Assembly (NCBI GenBank): GCA_963701565.1
Contig: CAVPAN010000016.1
Span: 129,272-193,271, forward strand
DNA length: 64,000 bases
Reading direction: 5' to 3'
Source of the DNA: an uncultured Microthrixaceae bacterium
GTDB lineage: Bacteria; Actinomycetota; Acidimicrobiia; Acidimicrobiales; DATDAH01
The translations under genes and the position numbers were made by a program. Below are positions 13,879 through 63,548 of this stretch, piece after piece. The notes beneath the pieces are model-generated. The model saw only the letters and a program-made list of their open reading frames with translations. It did not search any database and was not told the origin of the DNA. Numbering within the stretch: position 1 is the stretch's first letter; each line of letters opens with the position of its first letter.

Positions 13879-13899
13879 ACGGGGCCGCCACCAGTCGGA

Positions 13900-44693: not shown

Positions 44694-44720
44694 ATCGCGC
44701 ACTCAAGTCAGGATCGCTCA

Positions 44721-44746
44721 GTGGGTGATTCTGGTTTCGAACCAGT
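44721..44746 (-). repeat. degenerate tRNA-Val 3' fragment (att-like copy E)
   Basis: gtgggtgattctggtttcgaaccagt versus gtgggcgatactggtttcgaaccagt at 60935: 24 of 26 positions identical. Confidence 0.7.
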
Positions 44747-44827
44747 CCCATCGACCCCCGCTGACCGGGGTCACCGTCGGGGCCCACTACCGGGCATGGC
44801 CGACTATGCGGTCGTTAGGGTCTGCGG

Positions 44828-45247
44828 ATGGCAACCACCAAGGAACAGGCCCTGGCCGGCGTCAAGCTCTTCGGGCAGTTGAGCAAACGCCAGTCCTCCC
44901 GGTTGGCGCGGGTCGCCGACATCGTCTCGGTGGACGAGGGCGCAATCCTGATCAAGGAGGGCGAGCGCGGCCGTGAGCTCATCGTCATCGTCGAAGGCTC
45001 CGCGGTCGTCCGCCGCAACAATCGCAAGATCGCCGGCCTGGGGGCCGGCGACAGCCTGGGCGAGATGTCGCTGCTCGACCGCCAGTTGGCGACCGCCACG
45101 GTGGTCACGACCGAGCCCTGCCAGCTCGTCGTGATCGACGGACGGCGGTTCGAATCGGAGCTCGAGAACCTGCCCGGTCTGGCCCGGAACCTGCTGGCCA
45201 CGCTCTCCACCCGCCTCCGCGAGACCAACAAGGCCCTGGACCTCTAG
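44828..45247 (+). CDS. cyclic nucleotide-binding domain protein
   Basis: VKLF..L, EGERG, GDSLGEMSLLD..ATATV. Confidence 0.88.
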   Translation: MATTKEQALAGVKLFGQLSKRQSSRLARVADIVSVDEGAILIKEGERGRELIVIVEGSAVVRRNNRKIAGLGAGDSLGEMSLLDRQLATATVVTTEPCQLVVIDGRRFESELENLPGLARNLLATLSTRLRETNKALDL

Positions 45248-45505
45248 CGGCCGGTGCCGTGACCCGCGTGGACGGGTTCGAACGATGGCTGGCTGTCACG
45301 GAAGGCGGTCTTTGGGTACACGGTCGGAACCGAGCGATCTCCGGGGTCTGGGCGGCGATCCGCACCGCGCGGCAGATGAGGCTCCGAGTTCCCGCCAGTC
45401 GCTTGGAAAGGGCAGCCCGGTCGCATTTGCGGTCGGTGACCCCGCTGGCACAACGAACACCGCGCGGCTACCGCCGGGAGCGGTAGCCGCACGGAGTCGC
45501 CCTGT

Positions 45506-46276
45506 TCAGGCCGGCGTAGCGGCGCTGGCGCTGGCCGGCGAGAGCCCGACGACGCCGTTGCTGCGAGCCCACGCGGCGAGCGGGGCCGACACATCGAGGT
45601 CAGCGGTCGCGCTGGCGCTGGCCGGCGAGAGCCCGACGACGCCGTTGCTGCGAGCCCACGCGGCGAGCGGGGCCGACACATCGAGGTCAGCGGTCGCGCT
45701 GGCGCTGGCCGGCGAGAGCCCGACGACGCCGTTGCTGCGAGCCCACGCGGCGAGCGGGGCCGACACATCGAGGTCAGCGGTCGCGCTGGCGCTGGCCGGC
45801 GAGAGCCCGACGACGCCGTTGCTGCGAGCCCACGCGGCGAGCGGGGCCGACACATCGAGGTCAGCGGTCGCGCTGGCGCTGGCCGGCGAGAGCCCGACGA
45901 CGCCGTTGGTGCGAGCCCAGTCGGCGAGCGGGCCGACACCTCGAGGTCAGCGGTCGCGCTGGCGCTGGCCGGCGAGAGCCCGACGACGCCGTTGCTGCGA
46001 GCCCACTCGGCCAGCCGGGCCGACACATCGAGGTCGGCGGGCGCGCCGGCGCTGGCGGGCGAGAGCCCGACGACGCCGTTGGTGCGAGCCCACGTCGGCG
46101 AGCGGGGCGGACACCTCGAGGTCGGCGGGCGTGGTGATCGTCCTGGCGGGGTCGTCGGTCATCGTCTGAACGGCCCAGTAGCCGACCATGGTCGCCGCCA
46201 CGGCGATCAGGGCGGCGATCGCCGCGTACCGAGCTCGGCGGCTCGCCGTCTGCGGGTGGGTGATGGTGATGGTCAT
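45506..46276 (-). CDS. membrane-anchored/secreted protein with seven 29-aa repeats (two indels)
   Basis: GAAGGAG RBS, MTITITHP..TM, then ADLDVSAPLAAWARSNGVVGLSPASASAT-type repeats to the stop at 45506. Confidence 0.8.
45520..46128. repeat. 87-bp tandem repeat, 7 units
   Basis: gagagcccgacgacgccgtt recurs at 45540, 45627, 45714, 45801, 45888, 45974, 46061. Confidence 0.95.
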
Positions 46277-46338
46277 TGTTGGCTCCTTCTCGGTGACGGG
46301 TTGCACCATCGCCCGCGCCGCCGACGTCCCTCCGACGC

Positions 46339-46371
46339 GGTTCCTGCACGGTTCCTACGGAATCCCTACGA
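46339..46371. promoter_or_regulatory. three 11-bp-period direct repeats, putative SARP binding site
   Basis: ggttcctgcac/ggttcctacgg/aatccctacga between the divergent repeat-protein and SARP genes. Confidence 0.6.
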
Positions 46372-46410
46372 CCCCTTCGTGGGCCACGCCAGGAGTCGTA
46401 CTGTCCGATC

Positions 46411-49023
46411 GTGGAGTTTCGAGTGCTCGGCCCCGTGGAGGTGGCCGACGGCGAGGCGGAGCTCGACAGATCGGCGGGTCGAAGTCGGGATCGCTGATCG
46501 CGGCGTTGCTCGCCCATGGGGGTGAGTCGATCTCCCAGGACCGGTTGGCCGAGGCGATCTGGCCGGAGTCACACCGACCGCGCGACACGCTCCAGTCCTA
46601 CGTGTCGAGGGTGCGCCGTTGGCTGGGGCCGGAGGGCCGGGCGCTGCTCGTGCGTACCGGAGCGGGGTACTCGGTGGCGTGCGGGGGTCGGCTCGATGCC
46701 GAACGGTTCGAGTCGCTCCTGGACCGGGCAGCCGGCGCGCTCGCCGGCGAGGATCCGGCCACGGCGGTCGGCCTCCTCCAGCAGGCGCTGGACCTCTGGC
46801 ACGGGCCCGCGTTCGGCCACCACGCCTCCGACGTGCTCGTGGCGCCCGAAGCGGTCCGCCTGGAGGAGCTTCGTCTGGATCGCCCTCGAGCAGAAGGTCG
46901 AGGCGGAGATCACGCTCGGCGACCACCGCCGGGTGATCGGCGAGCTCGAGGCGCTGTGTGAGGCCCACCCGCTTCGTGAACGGCTGTGGGAGCTCCGCAT
47001 GCTCGCCCTGGCTCGAAGCGGACGGCAGGCCGAGGCCCTGCGGGCGTATCAGCGAGCTCGTCAGGTGCTCGTCGAGGAACTCGGGATCGAGCCGTCGAGT
47101 CGCCTGCAGCGGATGGAGCAGTCGGTGCTGGCGCAGGACCCCTCGCTGGAGCCGACCTCGCCGCCCACCGTGGGCGCCGCCGGCCGGAGGCTTCCGACGG
47201 TCAGCCCGGCGCTCCCTCCCGACGCGACCGCGTTCATCGGCCGAGTCGATGAGATCGTCCGGGTATCTGCGCTGTCGGGGCAGACGAGGCTGCTCACCCT
47301 GACCGGCATCGGCGGCGTGGGCAAGACCCGGCTGGCGATCCAAGTGGCGCGACGGGCGGCGCCGTCCCACCCCGGGGGGGTCGTCATGGTCGACATCTCG
47401 GGGGTCACCGACCCGGAGGAGGCGGCGGCCACCTTCGGCGAGTCCATCGACGGGCTCGGGTCCTCGGAGCTCGAGCGCCTGGTGATCCTCGACAACTGCG
47501 AGCATCTGATCGAGACCTGCGCCAGAGTGGTCGAGGCCGCCCTCAGCAGCCGACCCTCGCTGCGGGTCCTCGCCACGAGCCGAGAGCCGCTCGGCCTTCC
47601 CGGCGAGACGCGCTGGACGGTCGAACCACTGGCGGTGCCCGACGAGGGCGCGCCGGAGGTCGAGCTGGCCTCGAACGACGCCGCTCGGCTCTTCGTCCAA
47701 CGGGCCCGGGCGGCGCGACCGGCGGTGGCCTTCGACAGCACGGCGATGCAGGAGGTGGCGGAGATCTGCCGGCGGGTGGACGGCATCCCGCTCGCGATCG
47801 AGCTCGCCGCCGCGCTCGTGGGCACGATGAGCCTGCGCGAGATCAGGGACGGCCTTGCCGCCCGATTCGAACTGCTGCGTGAGGGGTACCGGACCGCTCC
47901 GGTGCGTCAGCAGACGCTGATGGGCGCCTTCGACTGGAGTTACGCGCTCATCGACGACCGCGACAAGCTCCTGCTCCAACGGCTGCGCCCGTTCCCGCTG
48001 GAGTTCCGGGGGCGCGCCGCAGAGATCATCTGCGCAGCCGATCAGACCGACGAGCCCGCGATACGGCGCGGTCTGGGACGGCTGGTCGACCGCTCGCTCG
48101 TCCACATGTACGAGCGGGACGGCCAGACCACCTACGGCATCCTGCCGACGATCCAGCAGTTCATCTGGGAGCGGACGGGCTGGCAGGGAGGCTTCGAGCA
48201 GCGAGGGTTCGTCGTGGCGCTCGCCCGGCACACCGAGCCCCGACTGCGGGGAACCCTCGACGACATGTGGTCCGCACTCCTCGACGGCCCGACCGACGTG
48301 TCCCGGGCGGCGTTGGACCTCGCGTCCGAGCTCCACGACCTCGAGGCCGGGGCGTTCCTCGCCGGTGTCGCCGCCGCTCGCACGACGCGGTCGCGGCGGG
48401 TTGCCGTCGTCGGCGGGGTTCGCTCGGCGCGTGTCGGTTGCGAGCAGCTCGAGGCGGGGTTCCGCGCCGGAGTCCACCACGCGGCTGACGGCGTGGACGT
48501 CGAGGCGCACTATGTCTCCGAACCACCGGATTTCACGGGCTTCATGGACACCGAGCGAGCCCGGAGGCTCACGACCGCCGCCTACCGCCAGGGTGTCGAC
48601 ATCGTCTTCCAAGCGGCCGGGATGGTCGCCGGTCGGGGGGTGCTCGAGGCCGCCCGGAACTGGCACGAGGCGACCGGCGCCTGGAACTGGGTCATCGGCG
48701 TCGATCTCGACGAACGGGTCACCCGAGAGGCACGGTTGCGGCCCTACGTGCTCACCAGCATGCGCCGTCAGATCCCGAGCGCCGTCTACCTAGCCGTCAA
48801 AGCCGCCGTGGCCGCCGGCGAGCCCGACGCCGCTCCCCGCTTCGATCTCGCGAACGAGGGGGTCGGCCTGTCCCGCACCGGCGGCCACATAGACAGCCTC
48901 GAGCAGGAGCTGGACGCGGTCCGCGCCGACATCCTGGCGGGACGCATCGACGTTCCCCAGGTCACGACTCCTGATGACGTCTCATGGTGGGACGTGCGCT
49001 CCGAGCCGCCCATCGTCGGGTGA
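46411..49023 (+). CDS. SARP/BTAD regulator with NB-ARC ATPase and C-terminal BMP (PnrA-like) domain (frameshifted)
   Basis: VEFRVLGPVEV, LQSYVSRVRR, HPLRERLW, GIEPS; GIGGVGKTRLA, LDNCEH, DGIPLAIELAA; VDIVFQAAG, VIGVDLD, VLTSM. Confidence 0.88.
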
Positions 49024-49151
49024 CAGACCCCCGGTCGGCCATCGCCGCTCGACGACGGGGACGGGCTGACGACAGCAGGTCCGGGCCAAGGCATCCTGAC
49101 CCCCCGGCCGCCACGTCGACCGGAAGGCATACGCCACTGGTTCGTGCCAGA

Positions 49152-50995
49152 GTGAGGCCCTGCGCGCCATCGTCCTCATCAAGCAGGTGCCCGATCTGCG
49201 CACCGTGGCCGTGGGGGTCAGGCCCGACGGCACGATCGCCCGCGAAGATGCGGCGGCCATCACCAATCCCGCCGACCTCCACGCCCTCGAGGCCGCCCTC
49301 CGGCTGGCCGAGGAGGTCTGGGCCCTGAGCATGGGCCCGCCCCGGGCCGTCGAGGTGCTACGCGACGCAGTTGCCCGGGGCGCGCACCGGGGCGTGCTCC
49401 TGAGCGACCGGGCGTTCGCCGGTTCCGACACCTGGGCCACCGCCAACGCCCTCGCCGCCGCCGTCAGCGCCGTCGGCGGTGCCGACCTCGTGCTCGCCGG
49501 GCTGACGGCCATCGACGGCGAGACCGGCCAGGTCGGCCCCCAGGTGGCCGAGCGACTCGGCCTCCCTCAGGCCACGGCCTGTGAGGATCTCGCCCTCGAG
49601 GGCAGTCGCCTGATCGCCCGGCGCATCGTCGAGGGCGGCTACGAGCGCCTCGCCCTCCCCCTTCCGGCGCTGGCCACTGTGGCCGAGACCGGCTTCGTTC
49701 CCCGCTATCCCACTCTGCCGGGTCGTCGTCGGGCCGACCGCGCCGTCTTCGACACGCTCACCGCCGCCGACCTGGGTCTGGGCGACGACCGGGTGGGGTT
49801 GGCCGCGTCGCCCACGAAGGTGGCCCACATGGTCCCGGCCCCGCTGCCGGACCGGACCTGCCGCCTGGTCGGCGACGGTTTCGACCTCGATGACCTCGTG
49901 TCCGAGTTGCAGGCCCTGGGCGCGCTCGATCCGGCCCCCAACGTCGAGGAAGCGGTGGACGTGGCGTCGCCGCCGGAGCACGATCCCCATCGGGGCGTGC
50001 CGCACCTGTGGGTCGTCGGCGAGGTGACCGGAGGTCGCTTGTCCGACGTCGCCGCCGGACTGCTCTCGCGCGCCAGCGAGCTCGCCCCCGCTCTCGGGGG
50101 TGGCGTCGGTGCGGTGGTTCTCGCCGACGACCCCTCGGCGGCGGCGGCGGATGCCGCCGGTTTCGGCGCCGATGTGGTGTACCGGGCCATGGATCCCCGC
50201 CTGACGCCCTACCGCTGCCTCCCGCACACCCGGGTGCTGGTGGACGCCATCCGGACCCACCGCCCCGCCGCCGTCCTGTTCGGAGCCACGACAACCGGGC
50301 GGGACCTCGCCCCCCGCGTGGCGGCCGCCCTGGACGTCGGCCTGGCCGCGGACTGCACCGACCTCACGGTGGGGCCGTGGGAGCGCCGTCACGTTCGGTA
50401 CGAGGCCCTCCTTCACCAGATCCGTCCGGCGATGGGTGGCGGCGTCCTGGCCACCTGCCTCGCCCCGGAGGCCCGGCCGCAGATGGCCACCGTGCGACCC
50501 GGGGTGTTTCCCGCCCGCCGGCAGCCGTGCCGAAGCCGCACCCAGGACCTCGCCGTCGACCTCGAGGCCGACGACCTGACCGTCGAGGTCCTGGACCGGG
50601 ACGTGCGGGAGGTCGACACCCGCCTGGCCGACGCCGACGTCGTGGTGGCAGGCGGCGCGGGGTGCGACGCCGGCTCGTGGCATCTGGTCGAGGCGTTGGC
50701 CGACGCGGTCGGTGGCACCGTGGCCGCCACCCGAGCGGCCGTCGAGGCCGGCCTGGCCCCCCGCTCGCGGCAGGTTGGGCAGACCGGGCAGGCGGTCCAC
50801 CCCCGCCTGTACATCGGTTGCGGCGTCTCCGGGGCCCTCCAGCACCTCGTGGGCATGCGCACGGCTCGCACCGTGCTTGCGATCAACCGGGATCCCGAGG
50901 CCTACCTGTTCCGGATGGCCCACTTCGGCATCGTCGGGGACGTGGCCGATGTCCTGCCCCAGCTCACCGATGCCCTCCATCGCCGCCGAGGCTGA
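49152..50995 (+). CDS. fused electron transfer flavoprotein beta-alpha (FixA-FixB type)
   Basis: IKQVPD, NPAD..ALE, SMGPP, GSDTWATA, DGETGQVG, then GRDLAPR, ADCT, QVGQTG, GVSGALQH, all in one frame; exact start uncertain. Confidence 0.88.
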
Positions 50996-51070
50996 TCCGC
51001 GACCGTCGCCCAACGTCATCCCCGTCGGCCCCGCGGCGTACGTGGGTGACCCGTGGCAGCATCGCGGACG

Positions 51071-52270
51071 ATGCTGTACGCGTTCAACGATGTGGTGGTC
51101 GACACGGAGCGCTACGAACTCCGCCGTGATGGCCAGCTCGTGCACGTCGAGCCGCAGGTCTTCGCCGTCCTCACGGTGCTGCTCGAACGCCGCCACCGGG
51201 TGGTGCTCAAGACCGAGCTGCTCGATGACGTGTGGGGCGACCGGTTCGTCGGCGAGTCGGCGCTCACGAGCCGGATCAAGGCCGCTCGCCAAGCTGTCGG
51301 CGACGACGGCTCCGCCCAACGGGTGATCCGCACCGCCCACGGCCGGGGCTATCAGCTCATCGCCGACGTGAGCGAGGAGGCCAACGAGCGGACCCCGTCG
51401 TCACTGCCCGCCGCCCCGTCGCTCGACCAGGAGATCAGGTTCTGCACCACCGAGGACGGTCATCGGCTCGCCTATGCCACCATCGGCGAAGGACCACCCC
51501 TCGTGCGCTCCGCCCACTGGATCACCCACCTCGACTACGACTGGCACAGCCCCGTCTGGCGTCACTGGCTCGAGGGCCTGGCCCAGGGGCGGACCCTGGT
51601 GCGCTACGACGAGCGGGGTTGCGGGCTCTCGGATCACGACGTCGACGTATGGTCCCTGGAGGCCTTCGTCAACGACCTGGAGACGGTCGTCGATGCCCTC
51701 GGCCTCGAGCGGTTCCCGTTGCTGGGCCTGTCCCAGGGCGGCCCGGTGGCCATGACCTACACCGACCGGCACCCGGAGCGGGTGAGCCATCTGATCCTCG
51801 TGGGCAGCTACGCGAAGGGTCGCGTCCAACGGGCCCGGTCCGACGAGGAGCGGCGGGAGGCGGAGGTGCAGATCGAGCTGGCCCGCCTCGGCTGGGGGCG
51901 CGACGACCCCACCTTCAGGCGCTTCTTCACCTCGTCGTTCATCCCCGACGCCCCCGCGGAGCTGTGGGAGGCCTTCGCCGAGCTGCTCCGCCGCACCACC
52001 TCGGCCGAGAACGCAGCCCACATGATCGAGACGTGGTCCCACGTCGATGTCGTCGACGTCGCCCGGCGGCTCGACGTGCCGACGCTCATCCTGCACGCCC
52101 GGGGCGACCTGCGGGCCCCCTTCGAGGGCGCCCTGGAGCTCGGGACCCTGATCCGGGGCAGTCGGGTGATCCCCCTCGACAGCGCCAACCACCTCCTGCG
52201 AGCCGATGAACCGGCCTGGGCGCAGCTGCTCACCGAGATCGATGCCTTCCTCGCCGCCGACGGCGCCTGA
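51071..52270 (+). CDS. winged-helix (Trans_reg_C) plus alpha/beta hydrolase fold protein
   Basis: VEPQVF..ELLDDVW..LTSRIKAAR..GRGY; YDERGCGLSD, GLSQGG, NHLL. Confidence 0.9.
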   Translation: MLYAFNDVVVDTERYELRRDGQLVHVEPQVFAVLTVLLERRHRVVLKTELLDDVWGDRFVGESALTSRIKAARQAVGDDGSAQRVIRTAHGRGYQLIADVSEEANERTPSSLPAAPSLDQEIRFCTTEDGHRLAYATIGEGPPLVRSAHWITHLDYDWHSPVWRHWLEGLAQGRTLVRYDERGCGLSDHDVDVWSLEAFVNDLETVVDALGLERFPLLGLSQGGPVAMTYTDRHPERVSHLILVGSYAKGRVQRARSDEERREAEVQIELARLGWGRDDPTFRRFFTSSFIPDAPAELWEAFAELLRRTTSAENAAHMIETWSHVDVVDVARRLDVPTLILHARGDLRAPFEGALELGTLIRGSRVIPLDSANHLLRADEPAWAQLLTEIDAFLAADGA

Positions 52271-52309
52271 CCGGCGACCGGGGAACGCTCACCTCTCTCC
52301 CAGCGGGCC

Positions 52310-53728
52310 TCAGGGCACGCCCGTGGTGGTCTCACAAGCAGCCGCGGTGTCCTTGCCGCTGTTACCCCGGCACGTGTCTGCGCCGGTGCCGCCGATGAGT
52401 TGGTCTTTGCCGGTCCCGCCGATGAGCTGGTCAGCGCCCTCGCCACCTCGGAGGGTGTCGTTGCCTGCGGTCCCAAAGATCTGGTCGCGCCCGCTTCCGC
52501 CGTTCACCGTGTCCGCGCCGCCACGGCCACAGACGACATCGCCACCGCCCAGGGCGCTGATGGTGTCATCGGAGGGGGTGCCCGAGATCACATCCGGTCC
52601 CGTCGTCGGCGCCTGGCCCCGGTTCATGTCCACCGTGACCACCCGACCGGCACAGGTCGGCGGCGGCGAACCCGCCAGGGTGACCGCGGCGGTCCGGGCG
52701 ACCGCCACCCCCAGATTGGCGGCGGTGAGGATCGCCACACTTGTGGCCAGAGCCGGCTCGGCCGCGATCGAGACCGTCGTGTTCACCGTGAGCGTGCCGC
52801 TGGAGCCCCTGGTCAGGGTGAAGGGTGCCGGCCAGCTCCACGTGAGCAGCACCCTGCCCTCGCCACAAAGCCCCCCCGTGGTGCGGCTGAGCACCGGTGC
52901 CGGCGACAGCCCGGCGGAGGATCCGTTGGCGGCGCTGGTCAGGTTCGCCGGATCGACCAGATCCATGTCGGGCGGCAGGCAGTCAGTGATGACCGGGTTC
53001 ACCAGATCGTCGGCCGAGTTGGCGTCGACTCCGATGCCGAGCCCCCAGACGACGCCGGCGCCGGCGGACACGACCGACGGCGAGGTCCGCACGTTGCTGA
53101 ACCGAACGGCAAGTGGAGCGGCGACCTGATCGGTGCAGGACCCTCGGGGGATGGTCGTGGCGCCATTCGCGCTGGCGCTGACGGTGATGCAGTTGCGGAT
53201 GTTGGCCCCGGTCGAGACGAGAGCCCCGTCACGGCCGATCCCGTTGGCCGGGCGTCCCGCCCGCATGTGGACGGTGGCGCCGAAGTTCGCCGGCACCGTT
53301 CCGTAGGTGAGTCGGAGCTCGTCGGCATGCGCGGAGACGCCCGCGCCCCAACCGGACTCGACGGTGAAGGTGATCAAGATCTGGAACGTCCCCCCGATCG
53401 GTCGCCACTCGACCTGCGGCGCAGTACCGGTGCCCGTCAGGTTGGCGTGGCCATCGGTGACCATCGACAGCTCGCTCGGGACCTCCTCCAGCACCGTGAG
53501 GTCGTCGAGGGGTCCGGGGTTGGGGTTCCCTGCCGTGATCGTGTAGGTGTCGGACTGCCCGGGGCCGAGGGAACCGAGCGTGTCGCTCATGGCGGCGCTC
53601 GGCCCGAGGCTCCCGGCCTGCGCAAGCGCCTGGTCCGCCCCGGAGCTCACCGTGACCGTCGAGCAGAGCACTGATGCCGTCACGACACCAAGTGCGGTCA
53701 GGTAGCAGGCCAACGGCCGCCTGCGCAT
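52310..53728 (-). CDS. secreted DUF11/Ig-like protein with RTX-type calcium-binding repeats
   Basis: Signal peptide, YTITAGN and ITDCLP domains, GGxGxDxLx nonapeptides at the C-terminus. Confidence 0.82.
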
Positions 53729-53846
53729 CTTCCCCTGCACACCCACGCCGGCCCCTCTCGCCCTGAGACGGCACGCTCCCACATCCCGCCTCCAACTCGC
53801 TGGGAGGAGGTCCCCGCGCCCTGGCCCGTGACCTGGGAAAATGCTC

Positions 53847-53894
53847 GGTGGGCGATACTGGTCTCCGAACTAGTGGCCTCTGCCGTGTGAGGCA
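53847..53894 (-). repeat. tRNA-Val(CAC) 3' fragment (att-like copy A, degenerate)
   Basis: ggtgggcgatactggtctccgaactagtggcctctgccgtgtgaggca followed by the conserved cgcga flank. Confidence 0.85.
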
Positions 53895-54002
53895 CGCGAG
53901 CCGTTCACGAGGACCGCGGGATTCCGGGGTTCCACCGGTCACCAACCGGCTCGGACTGGTCGGCCTATGGTCACCCGCGATGCATCCAGCGGAGGGGTGG
54001 CC

Positions 54003-54734
54003 GTGGCGCTCGATCTGACCGGATACGACGCGCTGAGCTTCGACTGCTACGGCACGCTCATCGACTGGGAGACGGGCATCGCCGCCGTCCTGGGCCCCTG
54101 GGCCCGTCGTCATGATCCGGGCCTCACCGACGAGCAACTGCTCGTCGCCTACTCGGACCACGAAGCCGCGGTCGAGGCCGAGCAGCCCGGGTCCCGCTAC
54201 CCGGAGGTGCTGCGGGAGGCCTTCCGCCGCACCGGCGCAGCACTGGGCTTCCCGGTCTCCGACGCCGAGGCCGACGCGTTCGGCACCTCGGTGCCCGACT
54301 GGCCCGCGTTCGCCGACTCGACGGAGGCGCTCCAGCGTCTGAAGGCGCGCTACCGGCTCATCATCCTCTCCAACGTCGACCGCGAGAGCTTCGCCGGCAG
54401 CAACCGTCGCCTGGGCGTCGAGTTCGACGAGATCCTCACCGCCCAGGACATCGGCTCCTACAAGCCCGATCCCGCCAACTTCGCCGCCCTCCTCGACCGG
54501 GCCGAGGCGATCGGGGTCGGCGGCCGGCTCCTGCACGTCGCCCAGTCGCTCTTCCATGACCACGTCCCCGCCAAAGCCGCGGGCCTCCCCACGGTCTGGA
54601 TCAACCGTCGCCACGACCACAGCGGCTGGGGCGCTACACCCGACCCGCGAGCCGACGTCAGCCCCGATCTCGAGGTCCCGTCCATGGCGGCATTCGCCGA
54701 CGCCGTCGAGGCCGCATTCGCTCCTGACCGTTGA
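54003..54734 (+). CDS. HAD family hydrolase (haloacid dehalogenase type II-like)
   Basis: FDCYGTLIDWE, LSNVD, YKP, HVAQSLFHD. Confidence 0.92.
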   Translation: MALDLTGYDALSFDCYGTLIDWETGIAAVLGPWARRHDPGLTDEQLLVAYSDHEAAVEAEQPGSRYPEVLREAFRRTGAALGFPVSDAEADAFGTSVPDWPAFADSTEALQRLKARYRLIILSNVDRESFAGSNRRLGVEFDEILTAQDIGSYKPDPANFAALLDRAEAIGVGGRLLHVAQSLFHDHVPAKAAGLPTVWINRRHDHSGWGATPDPRADVSPDLEVPSMAAFADAVEAAFAPDR

Positions 54735-54803
54735 CGGCGCGCTGGCGCCTCCCCCGTCGTGACCGGGGTTGGGCGTCGCGTGGTGGGGGGGGACCTCCGG
54801 CCC

Positions 54804-54828
54804 AACGTCTTGGGGGCTGCGGCGTGTA
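54804..54828 (+). promoter_or_regulatory. ECF-type promoter copy (AAC-N16-CGTGTA)
   Basis: Homologous to 56486 and 58575; GTG start follows after a 6-nt spacer. Confidence 0.55.
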
Positions 54829-54834
54829 GCTGCT

Positions 54835-55021
54835 GTGGATGTGGTGACCGCGCCGGCCGACTACGCCGCCATCCCGACCTTCGACTCGTTCTTCGCGGCC
54901 GAGTATGGGCGGGTGGTGGGGCTGGCCGGCGTGCTCTGCGGCCAACGGGCAGTGGCCGAGGAGATCGTCCAGGGACACCTTCGTCCAGGCCTACCGGCGC
55001 TCGTCAGTGGTGTCGGGCTAC
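54835..55021 (+). pseudogene. truncated ECF sigma factor paralog
   Basis: VDVVTAPADYAAIPTFDSFFAAEYGRVVGLA..AVAEEI, homologous to the 56518 gene; similarity ends ~55021. Confidence 0.8.
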
Positions 55022-55099
55022 GGCTGGTGTTCGGACAGATGACCGTCGTGTCCCGCAGCGTCCGAGCTGCGGGCGGACGAGCCGCGGACGAACGGGACG

Positions 55100-56239
55100 T
55101 CACAGGCGGAGCCGCGTGACGACCGCCCGCAGCTCGAGCGAGCACCGCACCACGCCGTTCCGGGCCGCTTCCGCCCGGACGCACCAGGCGGCGTCGAGAT
55201 CTGCGGCGGGCACGGCCCGGGCCTCCGCCAGCAGGTCATCAATCGCCGCTACGGCGGCGCGCAGGGACCGGCCGGCCGTGGGGTCGAGGTCGAGCGGCGG
55301 CGCCGAGGCCAGCTCGCGGGCCCGACCAGGATCGCCGGCGCGCACCGCCTCGATGACCGCCCCGAGCCGCTGGTAGCGGTCGGCGGCGACGTCCTCACCG
55401 GGAAGCACGAACGAGGCGTGCGGCGTGCTGAGCGTGTCGAACACGTAGGCGTCACCGACCTCGACCTCGGCCCGGAACCACCACTCCTGCGCCGGATCGT
55501 GGAGGCACACCCAGATGTCGTTCACCGACTGGTCCTCCTCCCGGTCGAGGAAGCCGTCGACCGGGAGCTGGTAGCGCAGCTGATGCCGCCGTCGATCGAG
55601 CGATCGGCCGTCCATCAAGGTGAGCGGCCGCGTCACCTGGCGCAGTGGTAACCAGAGGTTGACCAGGTGCTGGGTCGACGTTTGGTTGTGGCTGTCGGGG
55701 CTGTCGTGCCCGAACACCTCCGCGGCACCGCCGTCGAACAGTTGGCGCAGCGGCGTCCCGAGGACGTCCTGGTCGATGTGGACGTTGATCGCGCCGTGGT
55801 GCTCGGCGCCGTCGACCTCTATGCCGCCCGGCCCGGCGTGGCGCACGATCACGCCCTCGGCAGCCACGTGGTCGACGCGCAGCCGGGAGCCGTCGGCGAG
55901 CTCGATGGCGGCCCCCGTCAGCAGCGAACGCAGGCGCGTGACCTGCTCGTCACCGGCCTCGCCGGCGTCGCGGATCTCGCCCAGCAGGGAGGTGAGGCCC
56001 GGCTGCCGGGGCAGGCGGACCGCCTCGAAGCCCGCCTCGAGGAACCTCGGGGCCTCGTCGGCGCCGTCGATCTCGTTGATGGCGCAGACCTCGAACGCCA
56101 CGCCCCGGTCGTCGTAGGCCGTGGAGCGCTCGCGGGTCGGCGACCGGAGCAACCCGGGCCGCTCCTGGTCGGCCACGACGGTCCCAGCCGGAGCGAAGCC
56201 GATCGGTGCCGTGACCCTGGTCGTCGCTGCCGCAGCCAT
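55100..56239 (-). CDS. CmcJ/NvfI-like putative Fe(II)/2OG oxidoreductase
   Basis: GFE, VHIDQ, NLWLPL..PLTLMD..SL, FD..TPHASF, RCSLELR. Confidence 0.6.
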   Translation of the reverse strand: MAAAATTRVTAPIGFAPAGTVVADQERPGLLRSPTRERSTAYDDRGVAFEVCAINEIDGADEAPRFLEAGFEAVRLPRQPGLTSLLGEIRDAGEAGDEQVTRLRSLLTGAAIELADGSRLRVDHVAAEGVIVRHAGPGGIEVDGAEHHGAINVHIDQDVLGTPLRQLFDGGAAEVFGHDSPDSHNQTSTQHLVNLWLPLRQVTRPLTLMDGRSLDRRRHQLRYQLPVDGFLDREEDQSVNDIWVCLHDPAQEWWFRAEVEVGDAYVFDTLSTPHASFVLPGEDVAADRYQRLGAVIEAVRAGDPGRARELASAPPLDLDPTAGRSLRAAVAAIDDLLAEARAVPAADLDAAWCVRAEAARNGVVRCSLELRAVVTRLRL

Positions 56240-56290
56240 GCCTTCGCCATTGTGCTCCGCCCGAGGACGCGGGGCGAACAACGGCGCAGC

Positions 56291-56322
56291 TTCGAACCAG
56301 TGACCGCTGCCCTGTGAAGGCA
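56291..56322 (-). repeat. tRNA-Val 3' fragment (att-like copy B)
   Basis: ttcgaaccagtgaccgctgccctgtgaaggca followed by the conserved flank, TGACC-like repeats and a GTGGTCT pair. Confidence 0.8.
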
Positions 56323-56485
56323 CGCGACACACTTCTGAGAACCCCGGAGTTCTGCGGTCTCCCTAGGTCAGCAGCCGATTCCGGCTGACCGCCAGTTACC
56401 GCTGTTGACCATGCGTGCCCATCATTTCGTGGTCTGGACGTGGTCTGGCGGCAAGGATCTCGCTCGGTGGGGGAATCATCGGCCC

Positions 56486-56511
56486 AACGTTTCAGGGGGC
56501 TGCGGCGTGTA
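56486..56511 (+). promoter_or_regulatory. ECF-type promoter AAC-N17-CGTGTA, probably leaderless
   Basis: aac gtttcagggggctgcgg cgtgta, then 6 nt, then GTG; conserved in three paralogs. Confidence 0.65.
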
Positions 56512-56517
56512 GCTGTC

Positions 56518-57039
56518 GTGGACGTGATGACCGCGCCGGCTGACTATGTCGGCGCCCCGACCTTCGAGTCGTTCTTCGCGGCCGAGTACACGCGGGTGGT
56601 GGGGCTGGCCTTCGTGCTCTGCGGCCGGCGGGCCGTGGCCGAGGAGGTGGCCCAGGACGCCTTCGTCCAGGCCTACCGGCGCTGGTCGGTGGTGGCCGGC
56701 TACGACGATCCCGGGGCTTGGGTGAAGCGGGTGGCGGTCAACCTGGCCACCTCGACCTTGCGGCGACGGACCCGGGAGGCACGGGCGCTGGCCCGGCTGG
56801 CTGCCCGCCGGACCGACCCGGCCGAGCTGGTGATCACCAACGAGGCCTTCTGGGAGGCCGTTCGCCGCCTGCCGAAGCGGCAGGCCCAGTGCGTCGCCCT
56901 CCGCTATCTCGAGGACCGGTCGATCGCCGAGATCGCCGCCGTGCTCGACATCGCCGAGGCCACCGTCCGGGGCTATCTCCACCACGGCCGAGCCGCATTG
57001 GCGGTCTCGCTCGACGTGCACCTCGAGGAGGAGACATGA
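56518..57039 (+). CDS. ECF RNA polymerase sigma factor (SigE family)
   Basis: AEEVAQDAF..W..DDPGAWVKRVAVN; LPKRQ..LRYLED..EIAAVL..TVRGYLHHGR. Confidence 0.92.
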   Translation: MDVMTAPADYVGAPTFESFFAAEYTRVVGLAFVLCGRRAVAEEVAQDAFVQAYRRWSVVAGYDDPGAWVKRVAVNLATSTLRRRTREARALARLAARRTDPAELVITNEAFWEAVRRLPKRQAQCVALRYLEDRSIAEIAAVLDIAEATVRGYLHHGRAALAVSLDVHLEEET

Positions 57040-58247
57040 ACCTCGACCAGCTGGCCCGCGACGCGGGTGCTGAAGTCCGTGACCGGGTCGCCACCATCGA
57101 GGCGCCCACACCCGGCGCGATCGCCCGCCGCTCGCGCCGGGGCCGGCTGGCGACCGGGGTGGCTGCCATCGCGGTCCTCGCCTTCGGCGGCGTCGGGCTG
57201 GCCGTCGCCCTCCAAGATGACCCCGCGCCTACGCGCCTGGATGTGACCCACGACCCGGACGCGGCGGTGGCCGACTTCCCGAACCTGACGACGACCTTCG
57301 TCTCGCCGAGGAACGGCTTCTCGGTCGATCATCCCGACCGGGTCGCGCTCACGCCAGCCGAGCAGCTCTGGGGTTTCGTCGACGACGGATTCGATGTCTT
57401 GGAGACTGGCTTGGCCGCCGTGTTCAAGGGAGCGTCGACAGAGTTCTCGCTTGTGGTCTCGCCGACGGAGTTCCCGGACGGGATCTCGATCGATGAACGG
57501 GTCGACGAGTACCTCGAGGGCTTCTTGCTCGGCGGCTGCGGTGTTCCTCGCAGCCAGCAGGCAGAGATCACCATCGACGGGCAGTCCGGCAGGATCGCGG
57601 AGTGTCCGAACCACATCGAGGCAACCGTGGTCGCCGGCGGTCGGCTCTATCTCTTCACCCTGTCGCACCACCGCCGTGATGCCAGAGCGGTCTTCGACGC
57701 CTTCGCCGCCACCATCGACCTGACCCCGGAGACCGCGGTCGACTTCCCGGGCCTGACCACGACCTTCGTCTCGCCGACCTACGGCTACTCCTTCGGGTGG
57801 ATCGACAGAGGAGGGGGGCTCTGGCCGGCCACGGAGCTCTGGGATCCGGTCAACCAACAGCCCATCAGCAACGCCGACAGCCCCTTCAGCAACCCCGACA
57901 ACCCCTTCGGGCGGTTCGACTACGTGGAGACCGGCTTCGGCGCCGATTTCCAGGCCGGGTCGACAGAGATCCCGGAGGGGGTCTCCATCGATGAATTGGT
58001 CGACGAGTACGTCTCGCCCAGCGGGTGCGGTCGGCCGCGCAGCCAGCAAGAGGAGATCACCATCGATGGGCAGCCGGGAAGGATCTTCGAGTGTCCGAGT
58101 CCGACCGACCGGATACTCGCGACCGTCGTCGCCAGCGGGCGGCTCTATCTCTTCACCATGCTCCACCACCGCACCGACGCCAGGGAGTTCTTCGACACCT
58201 GGGTCGCCACCATCGACCTGCGTCCGGAGGCTGCAGCGGAGCCCTAG
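57036..58247 (+). CDS. membrane-anchored putative anti-sigma/sensor with a duplicated extracellular domain
   Basis: Coupled to the sigma gene; TM; two copies of DFPxLTTTFVSP..GCGxPRSQQ.EITIDGQ.GRI.ECP..GRLYLFT..ATIDL. Confidence 0.85.
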   Translation: MNLDQLARDAGAEVRDRVATIEAPTPGAIARRSRRGRLATGVAAIAVLAFGGVGLAVALQDDPAPTRLDVTHDPDAAVADFPNLTTTFVSPRNGFSVDHPDRVALTPAEQLWGFVDDGFDVLETGLAAVFKGASTEFSLVVSPTEFPDGISIDERVDEYLEGFLLGGCGVPRSQQAEITIDGQSGRIAECPNHIEATVVAGGRLYLFTLSHHRRDARAVFDAFAATIDLTPETAVDFPGLTTTFVSPTYGYSFGWIDRGGGLWPATELWDPVNQQPISNADSPFSNPDNPFGRFDYVETGFGADFQAGSTEIPEGVSIDELVDEYVSPSGCGRPRSQQEEITIDGQPGRIFECPSPTDRILATVVASGRLYLFTMLHHRTDAREFFDTWVATIDLRPEAAAEP

Positions 58248-58274
58248 CCCGATGACATCATCGCCATTCTGTCT

Positions 58275-58536
58275 GTGGTCTATTCGTGGTCTGAACGGCG
58301 ACACGATCGTGCTCATCCAGAGGCACGTCCCCCCAAAATCGGTTTCTGACCAGGACATTCACCGAGTGGGCGATGAGGGTGTCGAACCCTCCGCCTCTGC
58401 CGTGTGAAGGCACGCGACACCTCCACGAGAACCCCGAGAGTCCGGGTTTTCCCCAGGCCAGAGGCCGGTTCGGACTGACCGTCGATGACCGCCAGTGACC
58501 ATGAGTGACCACAATTTGTGGTCTGTTTGTGGTCTG
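58275..58536. mobile_element. complete attP-like junction C: arm pair, tRNA-Val core, TGACC x4, arm pair
   Basis: GTGGTCT at 58275/58286 and 58518/58529; core 58366-58412; TGACC at 58476/58486/58496/58506. Confidence 0.75.
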
Positions 58537-58574
58537 GCAGCGAAGCTGTCGCGCCGTGGAGGGGTCATTGACTG

Positions 58575-58600
58575 AACGTTTCGGGGGGCTGCGGCGTGTA
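58575..58600 (+). promoter_or_regulatory. ECF-type promoter AAC-N17-CGTGTA
   Basis: Same layout as 56486; GTG at 58607. Confidence 0.62.
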
Positions 58601-58606
58601 ACGGCC

Positions 58607-59123
58607 GTGGACGTCGTCACGGTGCCTGCCGACTACGCCCCCGCCCCGATCTTCGAGTCATTCTTCGCGGCCGAGTACGCCCAAGTGGTGGGGCTGGCCT
58701 TCGTGCTCTGCGGCCGGCGGGCCGTGGCCGAGGAGGTGGCCCGGGACGCCTTCGTCCAGGCCTACCGGCGCTGGTCGGTGGTGCCGGGCTACGACGATCC
58801 GGGGGGCCTGGGTGCGGCTGGTGGCGGTGAACCTGGTCACCTCGACCCTGCGCCGACGGGCCCGAGAGGTCCGGGCGCTGGCGCGGCTGGCCGGCCGGCG
58901 GTCACCCGTCGCCGAGCTGGTGGTCACCGACGAGGTCTTCTGTGAGGCCGTGCGCCGGTTGCCGAAGCGGCAGGCCCAGTGCGTCGCCCTCCACTACCTG
59001 GAGGACCGGTCGGTGGCCGACGTCGCCGCCCTGCTCGACCTCGCCGAGGCCACCGTCCGGGTCCACCTCCACCAGGGTCGAGCCGCCCTGGCCACCGCCC
59101 TCGGAGAGGAGAACGACTGGTGA
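58607..59123 (+). CDS. ECF sigma factor paralog (frameshift in the G-run ~58801)
   Basis: High similarity to 56518-57039 along its length. Confidence 0.85.
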
Positions 59124-59659
59124 GCCTCGACGAGCGGGCCCGGGACGTGTGTGCCGAGGTCCGTCAGCAGGTGGCCACCATCGAGCGGCCGGGGGCTGGT
59201 ATGACCGCCCGCCGCTCCCGCCGGGGCCGGGTGGCGACCGGGATGGCCACCCTCGCTGTACTTGCCCTCGCCGGCGTCGGGCTGGCCGCCGCCCTGCAGG
59301 ACGACCCCGCGCCCACCCGACTGCAGGTCACCGACGACCCCGCGCCGCCCACGACGCTTCCGGCCAATGGCCGGGTGGTACTCCGGCAACCCGGGCCTGC
59401 TGCAGGTTCCCGTCGACCCCGTTCGACCGCCCATCGTGCTCTCCGACGACCCGCTCACCAACCTGTACACCGACTACACAACCAAGCCCTGGATCGCGCT
59501 CCAGGCATGGCAGCCGGTCCCGTAGCCATGCCGTCGGATGCGGTCTGGCGACGAGGATGTCGGGCAGTGGGCGGCGGCTACGTGTGGGCCCGGATCACCG
59601 AGGTCCTCGTCGCCCAGATCGACCCCGCCACCGACACCGTGGTGGCCCGCTGGCTCTGA
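59120..59659 (+). CDS. anti-sigma/sensor paralog with a different, possibly degenerate C-terminus
   Basis: First ~74 aa match the 57036 protein up to DDPAPTRLxVTxDP, then the sequences are unrelated. Confidence 0.65.
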   Translation: MSLDERARDVCAEVRQQVATIERPGAGMTARRSRRGRVATGMATLAVLALAGVGLAAALQDDPAPTRLQVTDDPAPPTTLPANGRVVLRQPGPAAGSRRPRSTAHRALRRPAHQPVHRLHNQALDRAPGMAAGPVAMPSDAVWRRGCRAVGGGYVWARITEVLVAQIDPATDTVVARWL

Positions 59660-59680
59660 AACCCCCGGCCTGGCGGGTGC

Positions 59681-60853
59681 TCAGTCAGGGAGGGACGAGA
59701 GAGCGGCGATGAGGGCGTCGATGTCGGTGCCATCGTTGTAGGGGGCCAGCGAGACACGGATCCGTCCCCCGCGGGAACCGCAGACGATGCCGGCGGCGGT
59801 CAGGCGCGACAGCGTTCCGGCGGGCAGGTCACCCTCCCGCCCCAGCGAGATCAGATGGTGAGCGGCACCGGCGGCGTCCAGGTCCCGGAACGGTCGCCAC
59901 CCGAAAGGCCGAAGCCCTTCGATGAGGCGGTGACCGAGCGTCTCGGCGTGCGCTGAGATCTCTGCCGCACCGCCGGCGAGCAGTTCGGTGATCGCCGCCG
60001 TCAGCCCGGCCACCGAGACATAGGACATCGTCGACTGCGTGTAGCGCCGCCCACCCTCGGCGAGCATCAGTCGGGTGGCGTCGAACGAAAACGGATCGGG
60101 TGCCCCCATCCAGCCCGGCAGCGGCGGGGGGCGATCGAGCAACGACTCGTGGATGGCCCCGATGGCCACCCCACCATGGCCGCCCAGCCACTTGTACCCG
60201 CTCGACACGATCAGGTCGGCATCCCAGGCAGCCGCGTCGATCGGCTCCGCTCCCGCCTCCTGGGATGCATCGATCACCAGCCGAGCTCCGACGGCATCGG
60301 TGGCGGCCCGGAGCCGAGGCACATCGACACGACTCCCCGTGGCGTACTGCACAGAGCCAACGGCGACGACCGCCGTCGTCTCGTCCACCGCGGCGACTAC
60401 GGCATCGGTCAGGTCCGTGGTCGCCGTGTCGAGCACGAAATGGACGCCAGGCCCGCCTCGATCCTCGGCCAGCAACCACGGGCGGGTCACCGCCGGGAAG
60501 TCGGTGGCGACCAGCACGACGGTGCGGTCCGCGGGCGGCGCCAGCAGCAGCGGCGCCTGACCCAGGAGCTCGCTGGCCCCTGACAGCAACGCGACCTGGC
60601 TCTCACCAGTGCCCAGCACCGCAGCCGCCTGGGCCCTCAGTGCCCCGAGGTAGGCCACCTCGTCGTCGTCACTGAGGTGCAGGTTGCCGTGACGGCCGAC
60701 GTCCTCCAGGAATCGGTGCATGGCCTCCACCGCCGGGCGACCCAAGAGCCCGAGGGCCGCCTGGTTGAGGTAGACCGCCTCGTCGAGGCTGGCGTAGTCG
60801 GCCCGAGGCAACACCGCCGCCGGGTGGTCCTTGGTGTCTCGCGACCTGTCCAC
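59681..60853 (-). CDS. class V PLP aminotransferase / cysteine desulfurase-like
   Basis: YLNQAALG, DFP, VQYATG, DASQ, SSGYKWL, IRVSLAPYN. Confidence 0.9.
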   Translation of the reverse strand: MDRSRDTKDHPAAVLPRADYASLDEAVYLNQAALGLLGRPAVEAMHRFLEDVGRHGNLHLSDDDEVAYLGALRAQAAAVLGTGESQVALLSGASELLGQAPLLLAPPADRTVVLVATDFPAVTRPWLLAEDRGGPGVHFVLDTATTDLTDAVVAAVDETTAVVAVGSVQYATGSRVDVPRLRAATDAVGARLVIDASQEAGAEPIDAAAWDADLIVSSGYKWLGGHGGVAIGAIHESLLDRPPPLPGWMGAPDPFSFDATRLMLAEGGRRYTQSTMSYVSVAGLTAAITELLAGGAAEISAHAETLGHRLIEGLRPFGWRPFRDLDAAGAAHHLISLGREGDLPAGTLSRLTAAGIVCGSRGGRIRVSLAPYNDGTDIDALIAALSSLPD

Positions 60854-60932
60854 GACTGAGTTCTAGCCCGACGCCATCTCGGCCAAGCCTACCTGATCGA
60901 CGCATCGCGGCCGGCGCCGGCCAGGGGAACGA

Positions 60933-60981
60933 TGGTGGGCGATACTGGTTTCGAACCAGTGACCTCTGCCGTGTGAAGGCA
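60933..60981 (-). repeat. best-preserved tRNA-Val(CAC) 3' half including CCA (att-like copy D)
   Basis: Reverse complement is tgcc-ttCACac-ggcag-aggtc-actgg-ttcgaaa-ccagt-atcgccc-acca; no D-arm or 5' acceptor strand upstream. Confidence 0.9.
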
Positions 60982-61376
60982 CGCGATACCTCCGTGAGAA
61001 CCCCGGGATTCCGGCGTGTCCCCAGGTCGGCAGCCCATTCCGAGTGACCGTTGGTGACCCGGAGACAGACGGACCCGAACGGGCTGGAGCTCTGGTACCC
61101 CTACAGCGTCACCTGGTCGCCGGACGGCACGACGCTGCTCTACTCAGCGTGGGCCACGTCGACCGGCGTCCTGGCGGTTCGCGCGGACACGCCGACAGAG
61201 GTGACGGTGCTCCACGACGCTCGTCGTTGACAGGCTTCGTCTACGACCACACATGGGTGCCGGTCCAGATGTGGGGCCGGGAGCCAGGGTGACGGGCCGC
61301 TCGGCGCGCGACATCGCCACCCTGCTCGAGGCGGTGGCTGCCGGAGTGGTTGCGCTCAGCGCGCAGCCTCCAACGG

Positions 61377-61398
61377 CCCCGCTCACCCATGAGCGGGG
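61377..61398 (-). terminator. hairpin downstream of the P450
   Basis: ccccgctca-ccca-tgagcgggg, 9-bp stem, about 20 nt past the stop; no clear U-tract. Confidence 0.4.
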
Positions 61399-61416
61399 TT
61401 CCAGCGCCACCGTCCC

Positions 61417-62736: not shown

Positions 62737-62870
62737 CGATTGCCCCCTCGGTCGACGATCAGTGTGCCCCATCCCGCCTCCTGCGCACCGAGGTCGACGG
62801 CCCAGGCCCTCACCTTCGCCGATCGACATGATCCACAGGTGTGTCACGCTTGGGCTGTGGGGAGGGCACG

Positions 62871-63484: not shown

Positions 63485-63548
63485 GTCGCACAGGCCAGCA
63501 AGTCAGCGACGTTGGTCAGTCGCTGAATCGCCCACTTGAATGGGCCCG

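Follow-up and report, generated by a model that had tools for sequence, protein, structure and literature searches.

A probable tandem accretion array of recombinase-free modules at tRNA-Val(CAC) in an uncultured Microthrixaceae bacterium

Why should a stretch of chromosome that contains no intact tRNA gene carry, again and again, the 3' part of one? The stretch, hereafter the window, comprises 64 000 nucleotides of a Microthrixaceae genome (G000:C16:129272-193271, where G000 is the genome and C16 the contig, which runs 741 nt beyond the window end), and its repeats are copies of tRNA-Val(CAC). This array of repeats is a real, lineage-wide feature. We conclude that the window is probably the distal part of a tandem accretion array at tRNA-Val(CAC), built of modules like the cis-mobilizable elements (CIMEs) of other bacteria, and that the modules would have been exchanged by an integrase acting in trans.

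The G000 assembly is a metagenome-assembled genome (MAG) of 22 contigs, 78% complete and with strain-variant contigs, and all genomes compared with it are also MAGs. The mixture of strain variants is visible at the ends of the small contigs C1, C3, C6, C11, C13–C15, C17, C21 and C22, which match inner parts of large contigs with 84–99% identity. Genomes of relatives are designated G001, G003, G006, G008, G009 and so on; L-numbers designate genome loci or metagenome contigs (L079 and L086 are metagenome contigs). The family set consists of 18 Microthrixaceae genomes, from two genera named g1 and g2 (the sister genus), and the wider sample of 41 relatives. Junction alignments included first 33 and then 37 copies, from G000, relatives and metagenome contigs. 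We used ARAGORN for tRNAs, BLAST for tRNA copies, nhmmer for the junction in metagenome loci and Pfam for proteins.

ARAGORN recognizes no intact tRNA within the window. It finds 52 tRNAs in the whole G000 assembly, and the single tRNA-Val(CAC) among them occupies the first 73 bases of contig C20, on the minus strand (C20 c[1..73]). BLAST of this gene against the window gave matches that are all in reverse complement, at 60933 (46/47, tRNA bases 27–73), 53847 (40/43), 56291 (29/32, tRNA bases 27–58), 58366 (20/20, tRNA bases 27–46, the remainder being a variant T arm) and 44721 (24/26). Gaps between successive copies are 9126, 2444, 2075 and 2567 nt. In the four strong copies, identity to the tRNA stops at one base (after ...GTGTGAAGGCA) and a common flank follows, and the fifth, at 44721, is a vestige of tRNA bases 48–73 only (T arm and acceptor end), without the shared flank. 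An earlier reading of this DNA, made from the letters alone (the sequence-only reading), had given these coordinates and spacings and had described four copies in which tRNA similarity ends at a fixed base before a shared non-tRNA flank; BLAST, repeat finding and alignment agree with it on both points. Of its five co-oriented tRNA-Val fragments, however, only four stand as strong copies. Chance does not account for these matches, as shuffled controls indicate: a tRNA 26-mer (at most three mismatches) has two matches (0.00 expected), a 21-mer across the tRNA/flank junction has three (0.01 expected), and three TGACC phased at 10 bp also have three (0.01 expected).

Each strong copy forms part of an attP-like junction of about 230–350 nt, which consists of a short trailer, 47 nt of tRNA and an arm. 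On the plus strand of the window the order is a trailer of about 22 nt (CTGACCAGGGGAAAC...), the last 47 nt of the tRNA in reverse complement, CGCGAC, a palindrome (GAACCCCGGGATTCCGGGGTTTC), a second inverted repeat (GGTCAG...CTGACC), three to five TGACC at exact 10-bp spacing, and finally GACCACCATTTCGTGGTCTG-N3-GTGGTCTG. The P arm, about 180 nt long, bears the palindromes, four TGACC repeats phased at 10 bp and paired GTGGTCT motifs. All seven matches to the triple TGACC motif in the G000 genome fall within junction copies. The trailer is also located 3' of the native tRNA gene in G001, G003 and G008; its motif CTGACCAGGGGAAAC has no match in the window at up to two mismatches and marks no extra boundaries there. 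The break point after ...GAAGGCA is common to all copies of the junction family and to two other flank types in G011; three different flanks end at the same tRNA base. Other tRNA vestiges (6, 26 and 53 nt) break elsewhere. Each junction, left at the meeting point of two integrated elements, is an attP-like composite with a P' arm or trailer, the 47-nt tRNA 3' part and the P arm.

Junction 3 (58262-58560) has a second GTGGTCT-N4-GTGGTCT pair across the core, about 55 nt from the trailer, and its P' arm of about 95 nt accompanies the same core in three metagenome contigs. In attP sites of the lambda type, arm-type integrase sites are arranged as phased direct repeats on both arms around the core. 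The phased repeats on both arms of the tRNA-derived core found here resemble such a site. The three arm palindromes are 85–97% paired, but both sides have changed in only 6 of 21 pairs (mostly in single sequences, 10 cells in total) and in two of the palindromes 15% of the cells lack pairing; in the control, the tRNA T stem, compensation is real. Because compensatory changes are so few, we read the arms as putative protein-binding DNA rather than as a folded strand.

The same junction carries an unusual T stem. In this type-B form, which has its own trailer (trailer B) and P' arm, ACTGG/CCAGT is replaced by GAGGG/CCCTC; three of the five pairs are altered on both sides in four sequences (junction 3 and three metagenome copies), and every change is compensated. 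Such compensation would be expected if an element's copy of the tRNA 3' part must work in the tRNA after integration. No native tRNA with a type-B T arm was found among 401 genomes of the order, where only G000's own junction matched, and hence no donor lineage can be named.

The full junction is present in 12 of the 18 family genomes at E<=1e-12, in both genera, and 24 of the 41 sampled relatives match once tRNA-only matches are counted. The most extended series is that of G006:C8, with 13 co-oriented places between 2 and 70.5 kb, 1.4–18.6 kb apart. By nhmmer, the junction is present in 15 of 28 metagenome loci and absent from the other 13. A pattern scan of genome contigs yielded 27 stretches, 11 of them from MAG records of Microthrixaceae or Acidimicrobiales and 16 from unrelated taxa. 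Viral contigs (two patterns), phage records and plasmid records gave no match to the junction. This distribution bears on the suspicion that the repeated junctions are mis-joins made in assembly or binning. G000 is indeed a MAG with strain-variant contigs, and the tRNA contig C20 breaks exactly at the repeat. However, the junction copies differ from one another by 15–40%, hence they are not collapsed repeats, and the same architecture recurs in at least 12 independent genomes and in the 15 metagenome loci, which leaves an artefact scarcely credible.

Intact tRNA-Val(CAC) genes head co-oriented series of junctions in G001, G003:C5 and G008, and likewise in the metagenome contigs L086 (the tRNA, then three junctions within 5.3 kb) and L079. 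As the sequence-only reading proposed, the repeats are junctions of the att type at tRNA-Val(CAC). In all five of these assembled g1-type cases, the element adjoining the intact tRNA is recombinase-free and 1.4–8.4 kb long. The window itself offers only one border of its array: G003:C5 718425-720000 matches window 41363-42912, and the left border of the variable region is therefore near 42.9 kb (approximately 42912-43090, homology to the core flank of G003:C5 stopping at 42912 and homology to the sigma module of the C5 array, described below, beginning at 43090). The far side of the tRNA is conserved core, in which G000:C20 1–6.8 kb is syntenic with the upstream side of the relatives' tRNA (79–98% identity); its genes are glyoxalase-like, Ku-like and LigD-like by eye, and it has no PF00589 match. 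Because the relatives' arrays start at an intact tRNA, because the core is syntenic at C20 and because the left border matches G003:C5, the window array likely continues to the tRNA-Val(CAC) at the start of C20, although this is not proven. An intact minus-strand tRNA-Val(CAC) had been predicted to the right of position 64 000; C16 ends without one, but the lone gene at the start of C20 is on the minus strand and keeps the prediction plausible.

The G000 genome also has a second array, on contig C5 at 256.7–266.2 kb. It has the same junctions in opposite orientation, at 259.1, 263.1 and 266.2 kb (the last one partial), and its head is a 5'-truncated tRNA (bases 21–73) at 256721-256773. The supposition that all islets were stockpiled at one tRNA is not supported. 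The flanks of the C5 array are orthologous to those of the G003:C3 array, with 91–92% identity over 10 and 14 kb, but the content between them differs, and the G003 content resembles the window modules.

The origin of the multiple junctions may be judged from how unequally their parts have diverged. In G006, over 55 pairs, the tRNA part is 94.5% identical against 64.6% for the arm, and 8 of 11 copies are identical to the tRNA at 46 of 46 bases. Local duplication followed by drift would erode both parts alike, and the inequality therefore points to independent integration. These are signs that the junctions arose from diverged relatives, each of which would have needed a matching core, and not by local duplication. 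A special form of duplication deserves mention, in which a sigma/sensor operon next to an old att scar was duplicated in tandem together with its upstream region, the "arm" being the promoter or operator of the operon. A sigma gene follows each full-arm copy in the window (56291 and 58366) and each of the C5 copies (259k and 263k), pieces consisting of the arm alone precede sigma genes in G001 and G009, and about 8 of 33 aligned junctions lead into the same sigma 5' region. Many full arms, however, precede other cargo (GNAT or DUF5615 toxin-antitoxin pairs, a lipoprotein-like open reading frame (ORF), cyclases) or convergent genes, the arrays are anchored at an intact tRNA, and the GTGGTCT pair also occurs across the core, in the P' arm. 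Together with the unequal divergence of tRNA part and arm, these features make expansion of a paralogous operon improbable.

Independent integration leads to the question of whether modules have moved since the species diverged. The aminotransferase block of the window (59654-60901) is 95.6% identical to that of G001 and 96.6% identical to that of G009, which has two copies (95.4–96.6% when G003 is included), compared with core identities of about 79% (G001) and about 87% (G009). A 1.5-kb hydrolase/adenylate-cyclase block, inside the arrays of both genomes, is 97.2% identical between G000:C5 260825-262351 and L019 17132-18658 (G006:C8), whereas other modules common to G000 and G006 are 76–79% identical. 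The G000 copy of this block yields a shorter ORF (294 aa versus 542 aa). A further block of about 765 nt is 92–94% identical in three species (L025 9480-10246 of G001, L027 6689-7452 of G009 and G000:C10 404304-405070), lying in or near the arrays of two of them.

The window aminotransferase module is bordered on one side by a 6-nt vestige of the tRNA end, behind the stop codon of a sensor gene, and on the other by junction 4. In G003:C3 and in G006, the same sensor-gene end directly abuts a full junction. Furthermore, a contig of sequencing run X4 joins 59539 to 60935 and skips the aminotransferase module, a weak joint, since the contig has a depth of 4.9 and one side of the joint measures 37 nt at a likeness threshold of 90%. 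In support of the sequence-only reading, content is unlike between close relatives at orthologous loci, and one module appears polymorphic between occupied and empty. These comparisons indicate gain and loss of modules, and their exchange from species to species, at the att cores.

Which recombinase could have served these sites? Searches in six frames used the profiles PF00589 (tyrosine recombinases) and PF00239 (serine recombinases). Contig C16 has no match to either, which upholds the statement that the window segments contain no integrase. PF00589 has no match inside the arrays of G000, G001, G006, G008 and G009, and PF00239 has none in the arrays of G000, G001, G003, G006 and G009; the only PF00239 matches in these last five genomes are at G000:C10 and C4, outside the arrays. 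A home-made integrase profile, which found both of its controls, matched none of the 343 ORFs on 14 junction-bearing metagenome loci (62 kb). The possibility that the partner of the sigma gene is a hidden recombinase was also considered, and was rejected because of the PD40 beta-propeller repeats of its homologues.

The integrases that G000 does possess adjoin tRNA-Arg(CCT), tRNA-Pro(GGG) and, in a broken state, tRNA-Val(TAC). The last of these belongs to a separate decayed element (G000:C4 7709-14816), which has, downstream of the tRNA, a tyrosine integrase in broken form (13753-14189) and a piece of a resolvase (7709-7936). For tRNA-Val(CAC) none was found in the 78%-complete genome, contrary to the expectation of an integrase nearby. 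The sister genus is different: in G011, G012 and G013, a 373-aa tyrosine integrase (92–98% mutual identity) and an excisionase-like xis gene lie immediately downstream of tRNA-Val(CAC) or of part of that gene. The loci are L059 (G011:C43), L060 (G012:C14) and L058 (G013:C17), and in G013 about 5 kb interrupts xis-int. The P' arm of the g2 element has different repeats (GCGGACAAAC x2), yet its tRNA identity stops at the same base. Inside the G003:C3 array, an 86-aa remnant of an integrase C-terminus lies between two junction pieces. This remnant and the g2 elements with their unrelated arms are the only exceptions to the lack of integrases beside arrays across the 18 family genomes. Since integrase and xis stand directly beside tRNA-Val(CAC) in three genomes and a remnant persists in a fourth, the gene is a live integration site in the family.

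A serious rival must be weighed at this point, namely that homologous recombination has reshuffled the repeats. The array would then be a fossil of a few ancient integrations, and RecA-type recombination across the identical 47–70-nt cores and the junctions of about 230 nt would since have duplicated, deleted and inverted modules and swapped them between species, with no site-specific recombinase. The cognate integrase was found nowhere that we searched, and G009, with only two PF00589 matches genome-wide, nevertheless has arrays and two near-identical aminotransferase copies. Likewise, the units at 56291 and 58366 are tandem paralogues, the second array is oppositely oriented, as inversion between repeats would yield, and partial, arm-only and tRNA-only junction pieces are common. 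On the other hand, near-perfect tRNA parts beside arms of about 65% identity, a foreign but compensated T stem in type-B junctions and the break of identity at one tRNA base for different flanks speak against such a history. Moreover, the element adjoining the tRNA is already integrase-less in the five g1-type cases, and conservation of the arm across two genera argues for a site still under selection. We regard a fossil array as possible but rather doubtful.

The accretion model, which we prefer, supposes that elements of one family were inserted successively into the tRNA 3' part by site-specific recombination. Every insertion would have restored the tRNA with the 3' part that the element itself carried and would have moved the older elements outward, and the exchange would have been catalysed in trans by the integrase of an autonomous relative outside these assemblies. 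Today the array modules are 1.4–9 kb long and recombinase-free, and most of their cargo is sensory or regulatory; across arrays it includes extracytoplasmic function (ECF) sigma factors with PD40-type partners, cyclases, cyclic nucleotide (cNMP)-binding and STAND regulators, toxin-antitoxin pairs and a few enzymes. As history, the accretion of integrase-less islets at tRNA-Val(CAC) is supported; present-day mobilization of the modules in trans is plausible.

Several observations weigh against this model. The assembly does not link C16 to the tRNA of C20, and the C5 array is headed by a 5'-truncated tRNA rather than by an intact gene. No integrase accompanied by the arm motifs of the junction was found in G000, in the 18 family genomes or in phage, plasmid and viral collections. 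The tRNA parts of G000 are more decayed than those of G006 (71.6% pairwise identity); because of this erosion the G000 array looks older than that of G006, and it may be inert. The empty-site joint comes from one contig, with the depth and short side given above. No circular form or excision product was seen in the contigs of the sequencing runs, which are short and of low depth, no run containing >0.26 of the sampled words of the stretch.

More tentatively, one may suggest that Microthrixaceae keep, at tRNA-Val(CAC), a chromosomal platform on which small modules of sensory and regulatory function (ECF sigma/PD40 pairs, cyclases, toxin-antitoxins, single enzymes) are exchanged. A portable attP-like site of about 350 bp would allow integrase-less mini-elements of 1.4–3 kb to insert, excise and cross species, with a recombinase that acts in trans or is of a kind that evades the profiles. 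Such a system would be a functional analogue of the integron, based on site-specific recombination of the tRNA type; we regard this broader proposal as possible but rather doubtful.

The individual modules of the window are as follows. Module 1 (43135-44693, plus strand) comprises an ECF-type sigma gene (43135-43605, Sigma70_r4) and a partner without Pfam match (43602-44693), and is 83.7% identical over 1183 nt to C5 259031-257864. After it comes the vestigial junction (44700-44747, minus strand), a short trailer with the 26 nt of tRNA-Val and without the shared arm. The 9.1-kb segment (44828-53782) encodes a cNMP-binding protein, a protein with 87-nt repeats, a BTAD/STAND/Bmp regulator, an electron-transfer flavoprotein (ETF) beta-alpha fusion, a protein combining OmpR_C with an alpha/beta-hydrolase and, on the minus strand, an RTX-repeat protein. 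The 87-nt units (29 aa), seven of them head to tail at 45435-46129, lie inside ORF 45285-46169, which has no Pfam match. The apparent fusion is one ORF of 602 aa (49187-50995) with two ETF domains and an ETF_alpha FAD-binding domain.

Junction 1 (53826-53965, minus strand) has a trailer, the tRNA-Val 3' part with one base missing and only the proximal part of the arm. The cargo of module 2 (53967-56332) is a HAD hydrolase (53967-54734, plus strand), a sigma remnant (54787-55022) that is 85% identical to 56469-56704, and a 410-aa ORF (55100-56332, minus strand). Junction 2 (56276-56470, minus strand) has a full arm, which includes phased TGACC and the GTGGTCT pair, and a tRNA part cut short on its acceptor side. 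Module 3 (56440-58247, plus strand) has an ECF sigma gene (56440-57039, with Sigma70_r2, r4_2 and ECF domains) and a 403-aa partner with two internal repeats (57036-58247); its counterpart at G006:C8 4283-2329, likewise flanked by two junctions, has 78.9% identity to the whole unit over 2016 nt. Junction 3, on the minus strand, is composed of the P' arm with its GTGGTCT pair (58274-58293), trailer B, the tRNA part with the fully compensated T stem and a full arm. In module 4 (58505-59525, plus strand), a paralogous ECF sigma gene in two frames (58505-58945 and 58812-59123) precedes a disrupted partner ending with TAG at 59523-59525; frameshifts seen in G000 genes may be sequencing errors. ECF sigma genes directly follow junctions 2 and 3, each with its partner gene next. 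The units 56291 and 58366 (modules 3 and 4) are 80.8% identical over 958 nt, and sigma remnants recur at 54787-55022 and 61294-61329; the cargo is thus not unrelated from segment to segment, as had been supposed.

The inserted aminotransferase module (59546-60911) consists of the tRNA-end vestige (59546-59551), a class-V aminotransferase gene (59681-60853, minus strand) and its own trailer. Junction 4 (60912-61059, minus strand) has a trailer, the tRNA-Val 3' part (46/47) and an arm extending as far as the first TGACC repeats. Further cargo extends from 61044 to 64000 and toward the contig end: a decayed sensor/sigma remnant (region 4, 61294-61329), a P450 gene (61417-62883, minus strand), a DUF433 gene (62726-63142, plus strand) and an ORF at 63192-63539 that is DUF5615-like by eye only, without confirmation by Pfam.

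A sigma-70 promoter scan of 53700-61300 gave no sites, and the same interval has seven terminator-like sites, with 1.3 expected. One such site, on the plus strand at 58497-58523, is the GACCAC...GTGGTC hairpin of the junction 3 arm followed by a T-rich run. An Rfam scan of 42000-64000 (E<=1) produced only a chance match to AgvB. The idea that junctions are tRNA-like RNA genes was also considered: ARAGORN calls two, L068 893-961 and L085 4464-4533, but no copy in the window or in G000, and the calls are treated as incidental. Both are tRNA-Val(cac) calls of 69–70 nt, in which the proximal arm (GGGTTCT) pairs at 5 of 7 positions with the acceptor 3' strand.

Tandem islands at tRNA and transfer-messenger RNA (tmRNA) genes are already known. 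In the literature searched, which is no proof of absence in print, we found no account, for Acidimicrobiia, of recombinase-free modules this small that stand in long rows, have a single elaborate att site in common and turn over from one species to another. Modules that are still mobile would provide uncultured but abundant actinobacteria of soil and sludge with a route for trading signalling genes, and the conserved junction would serve as a marker of this traffic in metagenomes and, for genetic tools, as a candidate attP/attB pair. Even inert arrays would clearly record how accretion and decay shape a hypervariable locus. The habitat of the host lineage is given as soil or sediment and sludge (Microthrixaceae).

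How does this array compare with known systems? Integrons have the tyrosine recombinase gene intI, an attI site and a promoter at the head of the array, and their attC sites are imperfect palindromes kept as a folded structure. The arrays described here are like integron arrays in that small, co-oriented, recombinase-free modules alternate with a conserved site and vary in content among close relatives. However, no intI-like gene or attI is located by the array head, where there is conserved core without PF00589 match; the sites are attP-like with phased repeats, not folded attC sites, and the arm palindromes are almost without compensatory change; and the modules are often multi-gene, with regulators, including sigma factors, of their own. 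Recombinase, attI and attC thus all speak against counting the array among the integrons, and the sequence-only reading's analogy is not supported in the sense of membership. The actinobacterial elements that integrate into tRNA genes, such as actinomycete integrative and conjugative elements (AICEs) and prophages, use a tyrosine integrase; their attP, like the junctions, includes the 3' part of the tRNA, reaching from the anticodon stem to the end of the gene, and in G011, G012 and G013 an integrase and xis stand at the same tRNA. The junction arms differ from that of the g2 element (TGACC/GTGGTCT versus GCGGACAAAC), and the junction was never found beside an integrase.

In the relatives, direct co-oriented repeats of the tRNA 3' part have an intact tRNA at one end, an arrangement that G000 probably shares; a cognate integrase adjoins the att site neither in the arrays of five genomes nor on the junction-bearing metagenome loci. 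Streptococcal tandem accretion involves CIMEs of the ICESt1 family at tRNA or other targets, which are att-flanked elements that have lost their integration and transfer genes (PMC5704250). The window modules 56291-58365 and 58366-60932 similarly lie between junctions, and all their genes are of the sigma, sensor or aminotransferase kind, none being for recombination; no targeted search for transfer genes was made. Unlike in the streptococcal case, up to 13 junctions occur here in a row, many modules are only 1.4–3 kb long, no integrase-bearing partner resides in five genomes, and the lineage is Acidimicrobiia.

The closest parallel described is the row of ssrA islands in Dehalococcoides, where a single-copy tRNA-like gene is followed, within 100 kb downstream, by several islands in tandem, with over a dozen direct repeats (PMC3146451). 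Each island is bounded by a direct repeat of the 3' end of the gene, their number varies per strain, and some lack an integration module and were proposed to be CIMEs (PMC3146451). The repeat there is 20 bp and 16 islands have a module with a serine recombinase, DsiB (PMC3146451), whereas the repeat here is 47 nt with a trailer of about 22 nt and a conserved arm of about 180 nt, no CcrB-like serine recombinase occurs in the arrays searched with PF00239, and the integrases that target the tRNA in the sister genus are of the tyrosine type. The array is set apart from both CIME accretion and the ssrA islands by its elaborate shared site, its small modules, the absence of a resident recombinase in five genomes and its sensory and regulatory cargo.

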